Below, in pieces: positions 7,504 to 22,067 of a DNA stretch of 24,602 bases. The first letter of the stretch is position 1, and every line of letters starts with the position of its first letter. The notes under the pieces were generated by a model. The model saw nothing but the letters and a program-made list of their open reading frames with translations. It was not told where the DNA came from and did not search any database. This DNA is from Bdellovibrionota bacterium (lineage in GTDB: Bacteria > Bdellovibrionota_C > UBA2361 > JBGSMV01). A program made the position numbers and the translations under genes. The stretch lies in contig JBIKWF010000063.1 in NCBI GenBank assembly GCA_044356455.1, positions 1 to 24,602 on the forward strand. The letters run 5' to 3'.

Positions 7504-8298
7504 TTAATGTTTGGGTGCTCCACCATCAGCAGAGAACTGGGGAGGCGCTTGAAAAGTATCGCGAGCAGAGGCCCTAGGAGACTCCTCGTCGATAGACCGA
7601 ATCTGGGGCAAAAGCAGAGGATACGTAGATGTGCCAAGGTGTCTCACGGGGATCCGCTCTAGAGTTCCAGGAACCGAACCTCCTCTTAGCATGCGCGCAA
7701 TCTCGCGGGATTTGGACATCTCAACCGAGCCTGCCGAAAGCACCATTGAAGTGGTAGGGTCCACCAAGCGCGCATTGAGGTAAACGCGGACGGGGCTTAC
7801 CACATACGTTCCCACGACAATCCCGCCAAGCTCCCGCTCACGTCTTACGGTCGCAATATCTCGCGACAACGCGAATTCTCCACTCGGGTTAAGAAACTGC
7901 AAAGCATCTGAATGCCTCAGTTCAATCACGTCGTAGCCTTTCATGGTAAGCTCGCTCATCAGCTGCTCCGAAACCATGCGCCCGAAGGTAGAAGTCGTGT
8001 AGAGGTCGTCAACATTGACAAAGGTGGTAATTCCTATGGGCCCAGGATTTGAGCCGCGGTAGTACTCATCTATCTGGTCGGCAAGATAGGAGGTCTTAAA
8101 GCGACCTACGGAGCCATTGTCGTAATCCTTCATTTTGAAGGGCAGGTAGGCAGGCATGTCATCGTAACGCTTGCTGCAACCAGAAAAAGTGACTACCAAA
8201 AGGGCTAGCACAAATACATGGCATAGTACTTGATGAAGAGACCTCAGAGACCCGCGATCTCGTATTGCTTGAACGAAAAGGCCCATATGCTCCTTCAT
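7504..8298 (-). CDS. FlgO-family outer-membrane lipoprotein
   Basis: Lipobox FSGC; FlgO-type motifs ITTFVNVDDL..TSTFGRMVSEQL, GEFALSRD, IVVGTY, LNARLVD, VLSAG; AGGGAG RBS. Confidence 0.8.
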   Translation of the reverse strand: MKEHMGLFVQAIRDRGSLRSLHQVLCHVFVLALLVVTFSGCSKRYDDMPAYLPFKMKDYDNGSVGRFKTSYLADQIDEYYRGSNPGPIGITTFVNVDDLYTTSTFGRMVSEQLMSELTMKGYDVIELRHSDALQFLNPSGEFALSRDIATVRRERELGGIVVGTYVVSPVRVYLNARLVDPTTSMVLSAGSVEMSKSREIARMLRGGSVPGTLERIPVRHLGTSTYPLLLPQIRSIDEESPRASARDTFQAPPQFSADGGAPKH

Positions 8299-15405: not shown

Positions 15406-16068
15406 ATGTCCGTCTTTATAAAATTCTCGCGTCCTGGCTCTTCCGATAAAGTGGTGCGGGTCAAAGCGGCTCATAGCCGCTTTGGACTAGATGCATTTGG
15501 AATTCCATGTTTTGAGTCCCCCGTTACCGCCTGGGGTTCCCTGCTAGTGACAGGTTCTGAGGGCGTAGTAATCCCCGAGACTTCAGCACTAAAAATCGAG
15601 GGCCGGAACCTTCTCACGCGTGAAGCATTACGGCTGAAAGATGGAACGACCTGCTCAATCGGAGAGGTGACTCTTTCGTTCTTCTTTACTTCGCCTGCCG
15701 CAGAAGCCCTTTCAGAGACACCAGAAATTACCTCGGCATTGGACTCGAGTTATACTCTCGAAGAGCTTCCCTCTCTCACTTATACGCTGCCCTCTATTGG
15801 CCGAACCATTCCACTTTTCCCTGGCGCCTCCTATTCACTTGGCTCAGATATTTCATGCGCCCTGTATCTTCCGCTCGCAGGAGTTGCCCCACATCATGCA
15901 GTCATATCGGTAACTTCCTATGAGGTTACGATTTTATCTCAGGAGGGCTGCTTGGACTTAGTTCCCGCAGTCGGCGGTAGAATGGTTTCTGCTCTGCCAG
16001 TTACGGCGCGCCTTCTCCCTACAGGCATTCCACTCTCCTTTCGGGCTGGAGCAACCAGAGGAAACTAA
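15406..16068 (+). CDS. FHA-like domain protein (SctD/YscD-cytoplasmic-like), no TM helix
   Basis: YSLGSDISCALYLPLAGVAPHHAVISV; a first degenerate FHA-like half ending LKDGTTCSIGEVTLSF. Confidence 0.6.
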   Translation: MSVFIKFSRPGSSDKVVRVKAAHSRFGLDAFGIPCFESPVTAWGSLLVTGSEGVVIPETSALKIEGRNLLTREALRLKDGTTCSIGEVTLSFFFTSPAAEALSETPEITSALDSSYTLEELPSLTYTLPSIGRTIPLFPGASYSLGSDISCALYLPLAGVAPHHAVISVTSYEVTILSQEGCLDLVPAVGGRMVSALPVTARLLPTGIPLSFRAGATRGN

Positions 16069-16095: not shown

Positions 16096-16425
16096 CTAGG
16101 CCTCTATCCGCAGCACCTTCCTAAGCTCATCCTGCAAGCCCGGATCTGTTTCAAGCATAAGGCGAAGAAATGATTCCATCTCGGCATCACCATGAAGCCG
16201 TTCTGAAACCTTGCTTGCTATCGCTGAGATGGCCGCCTCAACACTCTTAAAGCGCTGAGAGGACAACTGCTCAACTTCTTGTTGCCATACTTGAGCAACA
16301 AGTTTTGAGCGCTCGGCCTCACTGCGCGAAACGGATTCTTTCACTTGAGCATGGGCACCAAAACTTTTCGCGCTTTTGGGCTTCTTCGAAGGACTCTCTG
16401 TTGGTTTATGTTTCAGTTTGCTCAT
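16096..16425 (-). CDS. Hypothetical protein, last gene of the T3SS-like operon
   Basis: ATGA overlap with the TPR gene and a GAGG RBS; basic N-terminus, helical C-terminus. Confidence 0.7.
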   Translation of the reverse strand: MSKLKHKPTESPSKKPKSAKSFGAHAQVKESVSRSEAERSKLVAQVWQQEVEQLSSQRFKSVEAAISAIASKVSERLHGDAEMESFLRLMLETDPGLQDELRKVLRIEA

Positions 16426-16973
16426 TGGTTCCTCATCGACTCAAGGTTACTCATAATTACGGGGTGCGGCGCAAGAGCTGCTGCCTTTCTAAGTTCCTGC
16501 AAGGCCCTGGCTTCAGCTTTGCGGGAGCTCGCTTCATCAAAAAGCGCCGCTGCTATGTTATTCCTTATCCTTGGATTACTCGGATTTGAGCGAAGAGCCG
16601 CTTCGTAGAGCTTGAGCGCCTCTTTTCGCTTCCCGAGAAGGTCATAAAGCACCCCCAGGTTAGCGAGAGGCGTTCTATAGCTTGGATCGAGCTCAAGAGC
16701 CTTCAAAAAATAGCTCTCTGCCCTCACGTAGTTACCTTCTAGAAGTGCCACACAGCCCAAACCATCGAGGGCAGGCGCTGTGCCACCTATCTCGAAGGCG
16801 ACTTGGAACGAGGCTCGCGCTTCGTCAAACTGAGCCCTGCGCAGGTATCCTGTACCCTGTTCCACAAGTTTTTCAGCTTCGCTTTCCCTCCCTGCATCAG
16901 GCTGAGGAGGCGCGAAACAGGCCGAAAGGATGCCCGCTAGAAATGCTACCAGCAAAAATTTGAACGTTCTCAT
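16422..16973 (-). CDS. TPR-repeat lipoprotein (pilotin-like)
   Basis: Lipobox LSAC; TPR patterns LG..AL..G.Y..A...F.KALELDP, NLGVLY, NNIA; ATGA overlap with the export gate gene. Confidence 0.85.
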   Translation of the reverse strand: MRTFKFLLVAFLAGILSACFAPPQPDAGRESEAEKLVEQGTGYLRRAQFDEARASFQVAFEIGGTAPALDGLGCVALLEGNYVRAESYFLKALELDPSYRTPLANLGVLYDLLGKRKEALKLYEAALRSNPSNPRIRNNIAAALFDEASSRKAEARALQELRKAAALAPHPVIMSNLESMRNQ

Positions 16974-18826
16974 GCTGCAAGTTTCTCCATAAGACTGGTC
17001 TGAAGTTCTCGGTCGGAAATCTCAATTCGCTGAAGCACGCGCAGCGAGTACTCCTCAGCCACTTCTTCGTGGGCAATGACGGGCATGCGGTTACCTCGCA
17101 ACCTTAGACATTCCATAAGTAGCCTGCGCGCCCCCTTAGAAACGACAAGCACCGCCGCGCTGTTTTTGACCTCCCCAAGCGCTCGCTCGATAGCAAACAT
17201 AAGATCAAGATCCAGGGGCTGCCCTTCCCTCTCGGTGCGCACAAGGGCCACGTCAATGGGAGCGTCGAGCACAACCGCATCTATCACCCGCCCCTCCTTT
17301 GCATGGCGATGACTAATCAGTCGTCGAAGTGCAATGCGCACTTCCTCTAGAAGAGCCCGCTCTCCCGAAGCTTTTCCTCCATGCTCGGCGAGTGCTTGAA
17401 CAATCATATCGAAATTGCATATGGGCAGGTCTTCTCGAACTAACTGCCGAAGCACCTCAGTAAGCTGAGTAACGGTGACGAGAGTTGGAATAACCGCTGT
17501 GACAAGCTCAGGTGCCTCGCGCTCAAAGAAATCGAGCGCGCGCCTTGTCATGATGTCGTCAATTAAGTCCGCCGCCCGCTCCTGCACCAGGTCGCTTAGT
17601 GCACTAAAAATGAGATTAAGCGTGCTTGCCGCATCTCCCCCCACTTCCCCTTGTTTCATGGGTACGCCACGTAGTTTGATTGCGAATCCTTCTCCTTCCC
17701 TTACACTGGCAATTTCAGGCACGCCTAAGACCAAACCAGATTTGGCATGCATTTGCTTTCTAAATTCTTGCACACGCCCGAGTAGTTCACGGGACCCATG
17801 GAGCTGCTGGGAAGCCTTGGATCCAAGTTCAATGAGCAGAACCGGCGTTGAGCGCGGCTCGAATTTGAGAGTCTCAGTACTTTGAACGGGAGCCTCAGGG
17901 GCAGCTTTTCCAAGGGCGCCTAAGAACAAAACCATAGAAAGCGTGAAAAAGGGCAGCATGGGCATTCCAGGCACAAGTGAAAGAAGGAGCGCGAGTACTC
18001 CAATCATGATGCGCGCTTTGCGCACTTGGCCTAGCTGGCTAAGAAGCTCCTGTGCCAGGGTAGCGCCATCCCCCCTTGAAACTCGAGTTACCACCATACC
18101 GGCGGAGAGTGCGTTAAGTAGCGCCGGAATCTGTGACACGAGCCCATCACCGATCGTAAGCAGGGTATACTTTTGTACTGCCCTCCCTGGGTCGAGACCT
18201 TCCATGGTGATACCAACCAGAAGACCTCCCACAATGTTCACGGCAACCATGCAAATGCCGGCAATCGCATCGCCTTTGACGAACTTCATGGCTCCGTCTA
18301 ACGCACCGTAGAAACGCGATTCTGTCTGCATTTCATTTCTGCGGCGCCGTGCGGTTTCGAAATCAATCAATCCGGCCCTGACGTCCGCATCAATTGACAT
18401 TTGTTTTCCGGGTAGCGCATCAAGAGTAAAGCGAGCAGCTACTTCAGCAACTCGCTCCGCACCTTTGGCGATAACTATGAATTGAATCAGGGTGAGAATG
18501 AGGAATACGACCACCCCCACCACGAGATTCCCCCCAATCACCACATCACCAAAGGCGTGTACCACGTCCCCAGCATCACCAGCCCCCAATATTGCTCGGG
18601 TCGTGGCGACATTAAGTCCCAGGCGATAAATAGTAGCGATCAGAAGTAGCGAAGGAAGAGAAGACAGCTTTAGCGAATCGGAAACATAGAGCGCGCTCAC
18701 GAAAAGTATGAGCGCAAGCACAAGGTTCCCCACGAGGAGGAAATCAAGTACCCCTGGAGGCACAGGAAGCAACATGCTTCCAAGCACCACCAGGAGTCCA
18801 AAAGGAACAAGTAATTCCTTAAGCAT
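16970..18826 (-). CDS. sctV: Type III export gate protein, SctV/FlhA (FHIPEP) family
   Basis: KGAERVAEVAARFTLDALPGKQMSIDAD, FYGALDGAMKFVKGDAIAG, YTLLTIGDGLVSQIPALL; about 8 TM helices plus a shortened cytoplasmic domain. SctV versus FlhA assignment rests on gene context. Confidence 0.93.
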   Translation of the reverse strand: MLKELLVPFGLLVVLGSMLLPVPPGVLDFLLVGNLVLALILFVSALYVSDSLKLSSLPSLLLIATIYRLGLNVATTRAILGAGDAGDVVHAFGDVVIGGNLVVGVVVFLILTLIQFIVIAKGAERVAEVAARFTLDALPGKQMSIDADVRAGLIDFETARRRRNEMQTESRFYGALDGAMKFVKGDAIAGICMVAVNIVGGLLVGITMEGLDPGRAVQKYTLLTIGDGLVSQIPALLNALSAGMVVTRVSRGDGATLAQELLSQLGQVRKARIMIGVLALLLSLVPGMPMLPFFTLSMVLFLGALGKAAPEAPVQSTETLKFEPRSTPVLLIELGSKASQQLHGSRELLGRVQEFRKQMHAKSGLVLGVPEIASVREGEGFAIKLRGVPMKQGEVGGDAASTLNLIFSALSDLVQERAADLIDDIMTRRALDFFEREAPELVTAVIPTLVTVTQLTEVLRQLVREDLPICNFDMIVQALAEHGGKASGERALLEEVRIALRRLISHRHAKEGRVIDAVVLDAPIDVALVRTEREGQPLDLDLMFAIERALGEVKNSAAVLVVSKGARRLLMECLRLRGNRMPVIAHEEVAEEYSLRVLQRIEISDRELQTSLMEKLAA

Positions 18827-18863
18827 GAGCGCGAGTCTCCTCTACGTCGAATGGGGCCAGGTG

Positions 18864-19190
18864 TTATCCGACTCGAATGTTTCGAAGCGCGGTCATTTGG
18901 ATCTCATGCTTGGATTTCTCAATATTTGAGAAGAACGTCATGAGCTGGAGCTGCTTCTGTTGCTCGATTTGCTCCTGGATGAGACCCGCATAATCTCCGT
19001 TGAGGCCGGGAAATTGTGATGAGCCGCCGCCGGTAAGCGCTCCCGCAACTCGGCTCGCAATAGCGGTAGCCCCGTTCATCAGGGTGCTAAAAGTACTCCC
19101 GGTACGCGTAGTGGGCTCCGCCATAAAGCGGGCAGCACGACCAAAATTAAGATGGGCTCCGAGCGTCGAGAGATTGAGAGGAGAACTCAT
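18864..19190 (-). CDS. Small T3SS-associated protein, candidate needle/inner-rod (SctF/SctI-like) subunit
   Basis: GGAG RBS 6 nt upstream; C-terminal amphipathic helix QLMTFFSNIEKSKHEIQMTALRNIR resembles needle-subunit C-termini (SN..K..h.....I..N.R). Confidence 0.6.
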   Translation of the reverse strand: MSSPLNLSTLGAHLNFGRAARFMAEPTTRTGSTFSTLMNGATAIASRVAGALTGGGSSQFPGLNGDYAGLIQEQIEQQKQLQLMTFFSNIEKSKHEIQMTALRNIRVG

Positions 19191-20136
19191 ATGATACTCC
19201 AGTAAAGGTAGACTCCTCCTTATCGGAGCGGCTTGGCAAAAGTTGCGTCTCAGACGGAGAATTAAAGAGCTCCTCTATCCGGATACTTAGGCCCTGCTCC
19301 TCGATGCCAACGGCTACGGCAGCGATGGTCCGTCCACCCATGCGAAGATAACCCGAGGTGCCCTGCGGGAGGTCGCATTCCAGTGCGTGTCCTACACGAA
19401 TTCTTAAAAAGTCCTGCAAGGGAATCTCAAGCGTCCCCATCTCTAGCGTGAGGTTTACGTTAGTGTTCTCCGACATGTGCAACTCCTTTAATAGCAATTT
19501 GATTTTTGAAACAGATTTGGTCAAAAGCCCTTGTTCGGCCGAGGTATTCACTTGGAGCGCTGGCTCGGCGCGTGCAGTCCACTGCGTACTTTCATCGACG
19601 AGCATCAGGGAATTGCCCCAGGGAATCTTGCATTCAGATTTAAGCAACAGCGTGGGCAAGGTGGGCTCGAGTTCAAGCATCAAGCGAAGCGCCGTCACTG
19701 CACGAGCTTGCTGCGAAGCTACCTGCCCACCACCTTCAGCTGGGAGAGGGAGCAGTGGCGGCAAACCACATACGGCGAGAATTCCTCGCATCTGCGAATC
19801 TTCGCTCCAGAGCTGAAAAAGCGCCTCGTCACCTGGAGGAGCTATCTCCACGCCGAGCTGCAAGCGAAATCCGTCAGGCATTCCCTTGAGCGTCCCGGCA
19901 AGAAGATAGAGACTCCGCCTCGACATCTTTTCCCCATTTCTCTCGAAGCGTACTCCCCAAAGATCTCCCTCGGCGCCTCGCGAAACCCAGAGCCGCGGCG
20001 CCACCGTATCCGGGGAGGCTTGGCCACAGAAACGAGGAGTTACGTGCTCGAGTCCGAGTTGAGACAACAGCAGTGTTACGCGCGCTTCTAAGAGCACGAT
20101 ACTTTCGTCCACTTTTTGTTGGCGGAATTTCAACAC
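19147..20136 (-). CDS. SctQ/FliM-FliN-like sorting-platform protein (C-terminal SpoA domain)
   Basis: VNLTLEMGTLEIPLQDFLRIRVGHALECD...YLRMGGRTIA...GLSIRIEEL; GGAGGT RBS before the GTG start; N-terminal part unrecognisable. Confidence 0.7.
   Translation of the reverse strand: MLKFRQQKVDESIVLLEARVTLLLSQLGLEHVTPRFCGQASPDTVAPRLWVSRGAEGDLWGVRFERNGEKMSRRSLYLLAGTLKGMPDGFRLQLGVEIAPPGDEALFQLWSEDSQMRGILAVCGLPPLLPLPAEGGGQVASQQARAVTALRLMLELEPTLPTLLLKSECKIPWGNSLMLVDESTQWTARAEPALQVNTSAEQGLLTKSVSKIKLLLKELHMSENTNVNLTLEMGTLEIPLQDFLRIRVGHALECDLPQGTSGYLRMGGRTIAAVAVGIEEQGLSIRIEELFNSPSETQLLPSRSDKEESTFTGVSYEFSSQSLDARSPS
19220..19251 (-). promoter_or_regulatory. Internal sigma28-type promoter upstream of the needle-like gene
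   Basis: Minus strand GAGAC-GCAACTTT-TGCCAAGCCGC-TCCGATAA; N11 spacing as in the consensus TAAAGTTT-N11-GCCGATAA; 29 nt upstream of ATG 19190. Confidence 0.75.
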
Positions 20137-20333
20137 GAGAGAAGCACCTCCACGGCAATCTCACGCGCCCACGAAGGACGTAGGTTTTTTAAAAATGAAA
20201 GCAGTGCGCGGGTTGCAGTGCTCAAGCTCTCCTCACCCGCAGCACTGGCTGAGGCGCTTTGCAGGAAAATGCTCGCAGCATGGTACTCCTCCTGCGAAGA
20301 AGCATTCACATTAGAGAGGCTGGTGAGCTTCAT
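20130..20333 (-). CDS. Small hypothetical protein (67 aa) between the sctJ and sctQ-like genes
   Basis: GGAGGT RBS; overlaps both neighbours and fills the operon gap exactly. Confidence 0.55.
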   Translation of the reverse strand: MKLTSLSNVNASSQEEYHAASIFLQSASASAAGEESLSTATRALLSFLKNLRPSWAREIAVEVLLSC

Positions 20334-21237
20334 ATATGAAGACCTCCGCCTTTCGTTTTCGCCTGAGCAAATAAAGCGCGAGGCCTACGCCCGCAATCAC
20401 GAGGGATGCCGCCACTTGCAGCGCCATTCCGCGATGCTGCTCATACCACGCGACCTCACTCCTCGGCGTCACGGGGAGAATGCCGCTCTGAGATAGTTCA
20501 GGAGAAGCACTCGGCGCGAAAGGAGGCAGGGCCGCCGCCTGCCGGGGCTTTGGCTCAGATACCGAAACCATAATCGAGATATCCTTGAAGGGGATGCCAG
20601 ACGCACCTGCCACAATCGAAGCCACATCCGTCCTTGAAACTGCATCACTCGTAACTACGAGCAGGACACTGGCGCTGCCCGGTGAGCTATCCATTTTTTG
20701 GCCAAACAAAGGATCGACCATGGGCAAATTTAAGTGCACGCGGCTTTCAAGAACTGCGGGGACATTATTAAGCGTCTGCTCAAGCTCTCGCGCCAGCGCT
20801 CGCTCAAAGCGGAAACGCTGATCTTCACGACTGCTCATCAAAGAACTCTTTTCGAGAGGCGCCGCATCCTCATTTCTAAGAAGCCGCGCATCGCTCACCG
20901 CGCGCAAAGCCGGCACGGAAGAGGCGGAATCTACCGCAAGGGCCCATGAGCCATCAGCTTGTTTAACTTTTTCTGACTCGATTCCCACATCAGCCAAGCG
21001 CGTAATAAGGCGATTAGCTTCTGACTCGGAGAGATGATGTATTACTTGTTCTCGGCATCCAGTGAGCGTGAGAAGCGCGAGCAGCAGAGTACCCAGGACG
21101 GCATTCCGTAGACTTTGGCTACGCTGTCTTTGGCCACGCTGTCTTTGGCTACTCTTCGAGGAGCCGCTCCTTGAGCAGTTCAAGCGCTCGCGAATGCAAG
21201 CGAGATACCCACGATTTTGACATGCCACCATTCTCAT
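20311..21237 (-). CDS. sctJ: SctJ (YscJ/PrgK-family) inner-membrane ring lipoprotein
   Basis: Lipobox LTGC; HHLSESEAN; RALARELEQTL..VPAVLESRVHLNLP; SASVLL; IVAGASG; C-terminal TM followed by RRKRK; size matches SctJ rather than FliF. Start uncertain. Confidence 0.88.
   Translation of the reverse strand: MRMVACQNRGYLACIRERLNCSRSGSSKSSQRQRGQRQRSQSLRNAVLGTLLLALLTLTGCREQVIHHLSESEANRLITRLADVGIESEKVKQADGSWALAVDSASSVPALRAVSDARLLRNEDAAPLEKSSLMSSREDQRFRFERALARELEQTLNNVPAVLESRVHLNLPMVDPLFGQKMDSSPGSASVLLVVTSDAVSRTDVASIVAGASGIPFKDISIMVSVSEPKPRQAAALPPFAPSASPELSQSGILPVTPRSEVAWYEQHRGMALQVAASLVIAGVGLALYLLRRKRKAEVFIYEAHQPL
21113..21152. repeat. 15-bp tandem repeat, about 2.7 copies (CTTTGGCTACGCTGT), at the sigma/sctJ junction
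   Basis: Units start at 21113, 21128 and 21143; they encode SQRQR-GQRQR-SQ in the sctJ frame. Confidence 0.85.
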
Positions 21238-21970
21238 TAGCGATCTCCACGAAGGATTTCTCTTTCAGGTAATAGTCCTCGACTATTAATCGCTCTTTTT
21301 CTGGAAGAGTTGCTATCAAAGTGTGAATTTTTTCTTTTTCTTGAAATTTTTCTATTTCTTCCTCGGCTGAGGCATGACTTGAAGCCATCTCGAGGGTATC
21401 GCCTTCCGCGTCTCCCAAGCTTAGGCGAAACATAAGAGCCCCACGCGCGGCGAAATCGAGCACTTCGGCAAGTCGGGGCTGCGCCTGACCGCCCAGTGAA
21501 CCGTCCCCTGCACTGAGGAGCTCCGACTCGCGCACTTCCTGAACTGCTGACAATGCTCTTGCGCAGCGGTATGCCCTCCCAGAAAGTTGAGAATTCTGGC
21601 GAATGTAATCGATTACCGCGCCGCGAATGCGCAGATACGCGAAGGTCTTGAAATCCGCTTTGCTCGTGGGATCAAATCTCTCGGCAGCCTCCACCAACCC
21701 AAGATACCCGGCCCCGACAAACTCATCGTTTGATTCTGGGGGCAGTCCCATCGCTTGAATCATTTTCCCTACAAGCCCATGCACATAAGGCTGGTATCTC
21801 GTGACAAGTGCGTCGCGCTTCTCAAGTTTTGCGTCGGCACGCGAGGATGCAGAGATGGAACGCCCCTTTTTCGGTGGGACCTTTGAAGACGGATTACTCT
21901 TCTTACGAACGATTTTTTTGCGCAGAACCAACTTACGGGTGGTTGGTGGCCGCGTTACTTTCTTTGGCAT
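21149..21970 (-). CDS. FliA/WhiG (sigma28)-like RNA polymerase sigma factor
   Basis: Region 2 GYLGLVEAAERFDP...FKTFAYLRIRGAVIDYIR; region 4 LPEKERLIV..YY....SFVEIA...MSKSWVSRLHSRAL; K/R-rich N-terminal extension; reduced region 3. Confidence 0.9.
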   Translation of the reverse strand: MPKKVTRPPTTRKLVLRKKIVRKKSNPSSKVPPKKGRSISASSRADAKLEKRDALVTRYQPYVHGLVGKMIQAMGLPPESNDEFVGAGYLGLVEAAERFDPTSKADFKTFAYLRIRGAVIDYIRQNSQLSGRAYRCARALSAVQEVRESELLSAGDGSLGGQAQPRLAEVLDFAARGALMFRLSLGDAEGDTLEMASSHASAEEEIEKFQEKEKIHTLIATLPEKERLIVEDYYLKEKSFVEIANENGGMSKSWVSRLHSRALELLKERLLEE

Positions 21971-22035: not shown

Positions 22036-22067
22036 TTATCGGAACTTACGAGCAAAAGTTACGTCTC
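22036..22067 (-). promoter_or_regulatory. sigma28-type promoter upstream of the sigma gene and T3SS operon
   Basis: Minus strand GAGAC-GTAACTTT-TGCTCGTAAGT-TCCGATAA; matches the 19220-19251 copy at 23 of 24 positions outside an 8-nt variable spacer. Confidence 0.75.

Follow-up and report, generated by a model that had tools for sequence, protein, structure and literature searches.

A split, secretin-less type III secretion system with a putative dedicated sigma28 factor in uncultured Bdellovibrionota

The window analysed here is a stretch of 24,602 nucleotides (contig JBIKWF010000063.1, positions 1 to 24,602, assembly GCA_044356455.1; C7 in our numbering) from a Bdellovibrionota bacterium of the class UBA2361. 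Its minus strand carries, between positions 16096 and 21970, an eight-gene operon of a divergent type III secretion system (T3SS) that is not flagellar. Further parts of the machine lie in two other operons of the same genome, no secretin of its own was found, and the sigma28-family factor at the head of the window operon appears to belong to a clade dedicated to T3SSs. We consider it probable, though well short of certain, that these genes encode a working secretin-less exporter for contact-dependent lysis, of the kind known as T3SS* in Myxococcus, under its own sigma/anti-sigma switch.

The window operon and the rest of the machine

The host genome (G000; 4.70 Mb in 216 contigs, 93% complete) has the following co-directional open reading frames (ORFs) in this operon, listed from its 3′ end.

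16096..16425, minus: 109-aa predicted sigma-binding protein; basic disordered N-terminus and four-helix domain (complex model)
16422..16973, minus: TPR lipoprotein, 183 aa (TPR families; best NCBIfam PilW, below cut-off)
16970..18826, minus: SctV export gate, 618 aa (PF00771, FHIPEP, positions 2-406 and 454-655; non-flagellar in the tree)
18864..19190, minus: 108-aa SctF/needle-pilin-like protein (hhalign to SctF alignment)
19147..20136, minus: SctQ-like C-ring protein, 329 aa; one C-terminal SPOA/FliN domain (FliMN_C; PF01052, E 1.5e-8)
20130..20333, minus: 67-aa conserved small protein at the SctK position (profile finds 15/34 loci)
20311..21237, minus: SctJ inner-membrane ring lipoprotein, 308 aa; lipobox LTGC; one C-terminal transmembrane (TM) segment at 270 (YscJ_FliF; TIGR02544, E 8.7e-23)
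21149..21970, minus: sigma28-family factor, putatively T3SS-dedicated, 273 aa (Pfam/NCBIfam sigma70 r2/r4; sigma tree)

A preliminary description, made from the letters alone, had named the sigma28-like, SctJ, SctQ-like, needle-like, SctV and TPR lipoprotein genes of this operon, and the ORFs, the family matches and the gene order in relatives bear it out. Every T3SS family match of the window proteins lies below the curated cut-off in Pfam and NCBIfam, and the 67-, 108- and 109-aa ORFs match no family in either. For the sigma the best NCBIfam model is FliA/WhiG (100 bits against a cut-off of 190), and its region 4.2 reads SKSWVSRLH. The 308-aa protein is SctJ and not FliF, as had been proposed, with 81 bits for TIGR02544 versus 25 for FliF; a lipobox-like motif occurs in 29/33 orthologues. 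Its start codon is uncertain: there is an 89-nt overlap of the open frame with the sigma gene, and no start codon lies between the sigma stop and the lipobox. SctV scores 514 bits as SctV and 477 as FlhA, both under cut-off, and about 50 profile positions are missing from its cytoplasmic domain. The TPR lipoprotein, pilotin-like by family and perhaps also by role, has a lipobox-like motif in 22/32 orthologues, and its profile matches the TPR lipoprotein adjoining Archangium sctV (E 4e-25). Judged by position only, the 67-aa protein may be SctK.

How widely is this operon kept? Our set for the phylum comprised 124 genomes, the listed ones all of one class (91 from the window's order, 33 from other orders); PMC13200544 places UBA2361 among basal Bdellovibrionota. 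A clear orthologue of the window sctV was found in 38/40 relatives, and fragments in the remaining two. The operon order was recovered in 34 relative loci, with sctV and the 108-aa gene in all 34, the sigma and sctJ in 33 (the miss is an incomplete 6-kb contig), the TPR and 109-aa genes in 32 each, and sctQ in 30. The last is the fastest-evolving gene of the operon (104-403 aa) and is shortened or lost in some families. Because the same order recurs in 34 loci, the eight-gene operon is confirmed as real and not a product of chance. In the 33 genomes of other orders, where the comparison covered the positions of sigma and sctV only, all have FHIPEP genes; by a coordinate count, 26 carry this sigma type on the strand of a non-flagellar sctV, 2.5-4.5 kb upstream of it, and in the other seven the two genes are on different or broken contigs. 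The dN/dS ratio is 0.08-0.37 where dS was computable, dS being saturated in most pairs. The system is kept in genomes of 1.5-1.9 Mb and in genomes that have no flagellum. Family f21 (G024, G035; L164, L168) keeps both export gates and has no T3SS ATPase and no flagellar FlhA or FliP. A distance of 22-32 kb separates the operon from flhA in family f28.

The list of genes absent from the window was correct in the preliminary description, and its suggestion that they lie elsewhere in the genome was right. The label "minimal" has to be dropped, since the rest of the machine is encoded on contigs C127 and C112, which together with the window operon make up system 1. The order on C127 is sctI, sctO/P-like, fliO, sctR, S, T, sctU(N), histidine kinase, sctU(C) and an FHA-TM protein gene; C112 carries the third operon, sctL-sctN. 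SctI is the 131-aa C127 product (hhalign probability 89%), and the SctO/P-like protein (355 aa) is so labelled by position and shape only. SctU is split, its N-part ending at the residue that matches N of the NPTH autocleavage site; between the halves lies a gene for a 1162-aa GAF histidine kinase (C127:34989-39564), and a gene of 887-1183 aa separates them in 10/11 relative loci. This second operon keeps its order in 11/11 loci (fliO found in 1/11), sctL-sctN is kept in 26/26, and the three-operon split was found in every relative examined. A conserved ORF upstream of sctL was rejected as a T3SS part; it is a membrane housekeeping neighbour.

FHIPEP, FliP/SctR and FliF/SctJ genes each occur three times in the host genome, which encodes two ATPases of T3SS type in addition to F1. 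Its flagellar set is on contigs C110 and C16, separate from the window system. System 2 (C184:7003-22326; C24:2681-8131; C95:2372-5363) is secretin-less and tied to a Tad operon: its sctV lies directly 3′ of cpaE-cpaB-tadA-tadB-tadC in 8/8 loci. It also has sctJ2-sctQ2-sctRSTU, contiguous with the Tad-embedded sctV in G005 (L284). We therefore rejected the C95 sctRSTU genes as partners of the window operon, for they are linked to this sctV and sctJ2. The Tad operon of system 2 carries kinase, phosphatase, FHA proteins and a pseudokinase, its SctU is truncated, and neither an ATPase of its own nor a sigma site was found for the system. The two secretins of the host genome are in T2SS-like (type II secretion system) and pilM-Q-like contexts, as read from translations; none of 41 relatives has a third (each has at most two), and no Tad secretin was found in these 41 genomes, although Tad genes are present.

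Several neighbouring observations may be recorded here. At window positions 15406-16068 (plus strand) an FHA/YscD-like cytoplasmic protein gene (TIGR02500, E 8e-6) is convergent on the operon; its homologue adjoins the operon in 4/28 relative loci and has a sigma site in G017. Just downstream of its operon, the same genome carries the T3SS-type sigma again, in a shorter copy (L152:13895-14515). Window positions 7504-8298 (minus) encode a FlgO-domain protein (PF17680, E 3e-32), away from flagellar genes. In the flagellar set of the host genome, fliF is directly followed by fliH with no fliG between (C16:8210-10677), and ten flagellin-like ORFs are scattered over ten contigs.

The sigma factor, its partner and its regulon

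On sequence evidence, the window sigma is not FliA but a member of a T3SS-dedicated sigma28 clade. In a FastTree tree of 29 rows it grouped with the T3SS sigmas of Archangium, Myxococcaceae and Bryobacteraceae (support 1.0), apart from 14 flagellar FliA, some of them from the same order; the flagellar FliA of the host genome is encoded separately. The operon had been described as a flagellum/injectisome hybrid with a sigma28 of its own. This reading could not be kept: because the Archangium and Bryobacteraceae loci carry the same sigma clade, a sigma beside sctJ is a common feature and not a new hybrid. The clade may accompany all early-branching systems. A literature search found no description of this system, of the sigma clade or of the promoter motif given below; Thiery et al. 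2022, Konovalova et al. 2010 and supplements were outside its scope and may annotate the sigma.

The promoter matrix was trained on upstream regions of relatives only, with the host genome held out, and yielded the motif AGGAAACTTT-N13-CGA(T/A)(A/T)A. Among relatives, sites of at least 12 bits precede the sigma in 23/33 cases, the needle-like gene in 26/34, sctI in 8/11 and sctL in 19/26, these being the training sets; the figure is 5/33 for sctJ and 0-2 in eleven control gene sets. In the held-out genome the sites score 22.2 (sigma), 23.3 (needle-like gene), 29.4 (sctI) and 29.0 bits (sctL), and so tie the three operons together. The window contains these sites:

22036..22064, minus: promoter-like site of the sigma operon (ACGTAACTTT-N13-CGATAA), 22.2 bits
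19220..19248, minus: second sigma site, inside the end of sctQ and directly 5′ of the needle-like gene, 23.3 bits
21287..21315, minus: weak possible internal promoter 5′ of sctJ, 14.7 bits

The first site makes autoregulation of the sigma likely, while the one upstream of sctJ may merely reflect the conserved coding motif TLPEKER. No site was found in the host genome before the system 2, T2SS, pilM or flagellar genes tested. Genome-wide, it has 117 sites of at least 15 bits (8-16 in shuffles) and 78 of at least 19 bits (0-1 in two shuffles), and 94 of the 117 are not inside a long ORF, which holds for 262 of 1000 random positions. The count is inflated by 31/117 that precede members of five repeated families, among them transposase-like and ORF6N. 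Strong sites stand before transposase-like and ORF6N genes and before an integron-type integrase (e.g. C84:31133, C19:85202, C216:23407, C92:1790), as if mobile elements were timing themselves to the sigma programme.

Could the flagellar FliA read this motif? We rejected it as the reader on two grounds, the absence of the motif from the flagellin genes of the host genome (0/10) and the case of Archangium, which has a single sigma28-type gene and no flagellar FlhA. In Archangium the motif stands before the sigma operon (16.7 bits) and before 5/5 short needle-like genes (10.5-12.7 bits, in a high-GC genome), with 14 strict-pattern matches versus 0 for the reversed control. In Bryobacteraceae it stands before several genes of the T3SS locus. 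The strict pattern was not enriched over control in the small genomes G010, G017 and G094. Non-flagellated members of the order retain a second FliA-like sigma, and comparison with them is non-discriminating. A metagenome motif scan, in which 57 of 80 listed loci were examined, gave mostly chance-like matches; one locus led to an sctI gene. In G048, G050, G053 and G059 (Lujinxingiaceae, Sandaracinaceae and others) we observed one non-flagellar sctV and a single high-scoring sigma of this type each.

The last gene of the operon probably encodes a new anti-sigma. Its 109-aa family was detected in 84/91 genomes of the order (the seven misses are 55-87% complete) and weakly in 1/33 of other orders, and a homologue directly precedes the sigma gene in Archangium and Myxococcaceae. 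The model of the protein has a predicted local distance difference test score (pLDDT) of 78, with a confident four-helix domain. Fold and PDB searches gave no clear match (best Z 5.3), and no match to the FlgM family was found in Pfam, NCBIfam or PDB sequences. The predicted complex with the sigma scored 0.85, and the best of three controls 0.03; the mark of 0.85 was reached by 116/157 solved complexes and 2/215 mismatched pairs, which, as own alignments were used, is a rough guide. The runs agree in at least 81% of contacts, with a partner pLDDT of at least 82. The modelled contacts fall on sigma residues 62-74, 108-116 (the helix recognising the −10 element), 132-147 and 166-182, and inhibition of the sigma is likely because they include this helix.

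The description of the 108-aa protein as needle-like, proposed from the letters alone, is upheld by our searches to the extent that it can be called suggestive. The protein has a conserved C-terminal helix (66-107) and a low-confidence N-terminal half. The family, to which the Archangium genes belong, aligns with the C-terminal helix of SctF (hhalign 63%, E 7e-5) and gave no SctI match. The sole PDB match is a 43-residue chain from a T3SS needle-chaperone complex entry (E 0.15), which we take to resemble the needle C-terminus, and the Atlas leads, all below 0.9, are needle/HrpE/HrpA clusters. PF09392 found no match in the host genome or in Archangium, and a fold search with the low-confidence model found none. 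The 108-aa protein was rejected as inner rod, that part being the 131-aa SctI.

The motif extends beyond secretion genes in the host genome, where its chance per gene is about 0.5%. It precedes comEC (19.9 bits), dprA (19.2), comM-like (26.6), recA (21.3), ssb (19.0), radC (15.1) and RecQ-like helicase (21.0) genes, a type IV pilin (25.6), a pilin-like operon (27.8), and genes for an MshEN-domain protein (18.5) and a CpaE-like ATPase (28.0), and also RadD-like helicase, ERCC4 nuclease and integron-type integrase genes; the ComM, RecQ, RadD, CpaE and integron labels are our readings of Pfam domains. The CpaE-like ATPase, the gene that was Pfam-scanned, comes first in a probable second Tad operon with a 28-bit site (C19:3480-11162), and the five genes 3′ of it resemble cpaB-tadA-tadB-tadC-tadG in translation. 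Small regulon proteins with Ser/Pro/Gln-rich N-termini include a pesticin-type lysozyme (PF16754, E 7e-5, below cut-off; site in G000, G001 and G022) and a glycine-zipper protein; two hydrophobic ones have a glycine-zipper match or none. The link to DNA uptake, seen in the host genome only, may be local. With the strict pattern, dprA/comM sites were 0/10 in G090, G091, G094, G102 and G010, a pattern that also misses the dprA site of the host genome, and four of these five genomes belong to other orders. No competence gene followed the motif among the 57 metagenome loci, and in the host genome radA, pilM and gspC have no site. Neither comEA nor comF was found.

Phylogenetic position and comparison with known systems

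The SctV tree was built from 67 of 162 SctV/FlhA sequences (IQ-TREE quick, LG+C20 PMSF) and the concatenated tree of V, R, S, T, U and J from 42 of 56 systems (1609 columns); left aside were Nitrospirales, Shigella and further long or redundant rows. In the former, the window clade (100) falls on the non-flagellar side (100), outside FlhA, in a basal polytomy outside the Myxo-long plus injectisome clade (96). In the latter, systems 1 and 2 form one group (89), whose sister group comprises all other non-flagellar systems (96), and system 1 is outside the Chlamydia plus injectisome clade (100%). Approximately unbiased (AU) tests on 30 rows (LG+G4), with several groups named after the trees were seen, reject a grouping of system 1 with Myxo-long (p 0.001; 0.012 with the nearest deltaproteobacterial row), with Myxo-short (p 0.018) and with the flagella of its own lineage (p 2.7e-5). 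The Myxo-long result may be biased by long branches. Judged by these alignments, the non-flagellar placement of system 1 is firm. The basal position of both systems may be an artefact, because they have long stems and uneven composition. The trees and the secretin count agree with the preliminary description of a divergent, split, secretin-less and early-branching T3SS with relatives in Myxococcales, and SctV does not nest among FlhA, an outcome which, as part of a complete flagellar set, that description had named as refuting it.

T3SS* (mxan_2434-2464) was compared through the locus L216/L217 of Archangium gephyra SDU49, taken as its counterpart from gene content. The Archangium locus starts with needle-like (184 aa), TPR, a 136-aa homologue of the 109-aa protein, sigma28, sctI, sctJ and a 527-aa gene, continues with sctL, N, O, P, Q, fliO, R, S, T, U and free U-C (O, P and fliO by position), and ends with TPR, five 72-aa needle-like genes, TPRs, sctV and convergent genes for an FHA-TM protein and a TPR lipoprotein. 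The five 72-aa genes (L216:8215-16073) are near-identical, each with its own promoter copy, in a system described as needleless. System 1 and the Myxococcaceae T3SS* share the absence of a secretin and the presence of SctI, J, L, N, Q, R, S, T, U and V, FliO, a free SctU C-terminal domain, an FHA-TM protein, a TPR lipoprotein, the sigma28 clade adjoining sctJ, the 109-aa family adjoining the sigma, the needle-like family and the promoter motif. Unlike the single locus of T3SS*, system 1 has three operons, with a kinase gene between the halves of sctU; it has one needle-like gene versus six and no LcrH-type chaperones in the three operons. It is not the sister of T3SS* in the AU test, its host is mostly also flagellated, and its lineage has no Tad secretin. 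By analogy, system 1 may work like T3SS*, from which it differs in locus structure and monophyly. Non-flagellar T3SSs of Myxococcaceae are described as without SctF in PMC3459982, PMC12075869 and PMC10433427, and FliO in a non-flagellar T3SS of Myxococcota is already reported in PMC12403147.

The "short" T3SS of Myxococcaceae (Abby and Rocha 2012, PMC3459982) resembles system 1 in being secretin-less and deep-branching, and its needle-like and SctI genes precede sctJ; it differs in its single locus, in having no sigma gene in the loci seen, and in the AU test. Canonical injectisomes (Ysc, SPI-1, SPI-2, Hrp, Rhizobiales, Chlamydiales) have their own SctC and form a secretin-bearing clade, whereas system 1 is without SctC and outside that clade. 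By family scores, trees and AU tests, the window sctV, sctJ and sigma are not orthologous to flagellar FlhA, FliF and FliA. The window switch still resembles FliA-FlgM in its sigma28 family, in the geometry of the promoter (8-mer, N11, 8-mer with CGATAA), in a small partner with disordered N-terminus and in a promoter of its own for the filament subunit. The window sigma differs from FliA in the −35 box, GAAACTTT versus a TAAAG-type box (PMC3627812), in region 4.2 and in its separate clade; its partner differs from FlgM in having no FlgM family match and in a folded four-helix domain modelled on sigma residues 166-182.

Possible functions of the system

The mechanism that we favour draws its parts list, conservation, motif and sigma clade from sequence and the binding of the sigma from a model, and we infer its remaining steps. 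The window would hold the regulatory and core operon of a machine split over three operons, and a dedicated sigma28 would read one promoter type before all three, before the needle-like gene and before itself. The 109-aa protein, the predicted binding partner of the sigma, would most likely act as its inhibitor. A SctJ/SctV/SctRSTU platform would be built in the inner membrane, rod and needle-like subunits would be exported into a short filament, and small regulon proteins (the pesticin-type lysozyme, glycine-zipper and hydrophobic proteins) would follow. These could then damage the envelope of a contacted bacterium, as is suggested by analogy with T3SS*, which is required for prey lysis in M. 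xanthus (PMC12075869, PMC10433427). Passage through the outer membrane may use a borrowed secretin or a putative secretin-free route involving the TPR lipoprotein, and the sigma would be released by export or loss of the 109-aa protein, in FlgM-like logic. A role in predation is conceivable on this basis.

A number of points weigh against such an exporter. The lineage has no cultured member, and no outer-membrane channel was found for system 1. The rejected sister status with Myxo-long means that the function of T3SS* cannot simply be transferred. Family f21 keeps the operon without sctN and sctQ, which would be odd for high-flux secretion. The needle assignment is weak, given its profile probability and the missing Pfam match, and the score of the complex could reflect likeness to solved sigma/anti-sigma pairs. 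For the four gene sets on which the matrix was trained, the motif matches are circular evidence. Since a second FliA-like sigma is kept, the identity of the motif reader in the lineage rests on the absence of the motif from flagellin genes, on autoregulation and on Archangium.

Other explanations deserve consideration. The sigma may be a competence-type master regulator, and the T3SS may mainly lyse neighbours or prey for DNA uptake and recombination, a possibility that is compatible with a contact-lysis exporter and that we regard as a serious but clearly less probable one. The sites before competence, recombination and pilus genes in the host genome speak for it, and Vibrio cholerae offers a precedent, where, in the competence regulon, one regulator governs DNA-uptake genes together with a weapon that acts on contact (PMC8632748); the host genome differs in having a T3SS and not a type VI secretion system (T6SS), and a sigma28 regulator. 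The link was not confirmed in other genomes, where dprA/comM and the metagenome loci gave nothing, and radA, pilM and gspC stand without a site. Rather unlikely, in our view, is a machine that stays within its own envelope, exporting to the periplasm only and serving as an assembly or contact sensor for a life-stage programme, its output being the switch of sigma and anti-sigma together with the kinase that sits within sctU. The lack of a secretin and that kinase-sized gene favour it, as does family f21, which lost ATPase and C-ring and kept sigma, anti-sigma, SctJ, SctV and the needle-like gene; FliA is, moreover, a global attack-phase regulator in Bdellovibrio (PMC3627812). It fits poorly with the conservation or co-regulation of rod and needle-like subunits, of a length-control-like protein and of candidate lytic substrates, and with the requirement for the Myxococcus counterpart in prey lysis.

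Injectisome-like delivery into a eukaryotic host such as a protist, through a borrowed secretin, seems improbable. Small genomes retain the system, and the glycine-zipper and hydrophobic regulon proteins could be translocators; against this, system 1 falls outside the Chlamydia plus injectisome clade, has no secretin of its own, and its sole identifiable candidate substrate is of peptidoglycan hydrolase type. We give hardly any weight to a decaying relic or a recent duplicate of the flagellar genes of the lineage, for which long branches, sctQ decay in several families and the position of the f28 operon near flhA could be cited. The AU test rejects grouping with those flagella, the dN/dS values are low, and order and promoters are conserved phylum-wide. 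The preliminary description had allowed for a relic lacking any export apparatus, whereas the export gate and the ATPase are present.

A bolder reading of the preferred contact-lysis exporter can be put forward tentatively, and we hold it to be doubtful. System 1 would be the earliest-branching living non-flagellar T3SS, phylum-wide, needle-bearing and secretin-less; it would have kept a flagellum-like sigma28/anti-sigma export checkpoint, its sigma would run contact lysis together with natural transformation, and the same sigma, anti-sigma and promoter would govern the supposedly needleless T3SS* of Myxococcus. If this is true, the needle subunits and substrates of the latter could be read from the genome. 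The substrates of T3SS*, its way across the outer membrane and its switching-on are treated as open questions in PMC12075869, PMC10433427 and PMC12428579. A dedicated sigma, a predicted anti-sigma and a motif common to three phyla would give a direct route to listing these substrates, and also a way to test the needleless status of T3SS* in a culturable myxobacterium. The pairing of Kil with T3SS* appears restricted to Cystobacterineae (PMC12428579), and the combination of a secretin-less T3SS with Tad genes is now extended beyond this group. Candidate deepest branches are added to the transition from flagellum to injectisome, and an uncultured phylum may gain its first functional handle.

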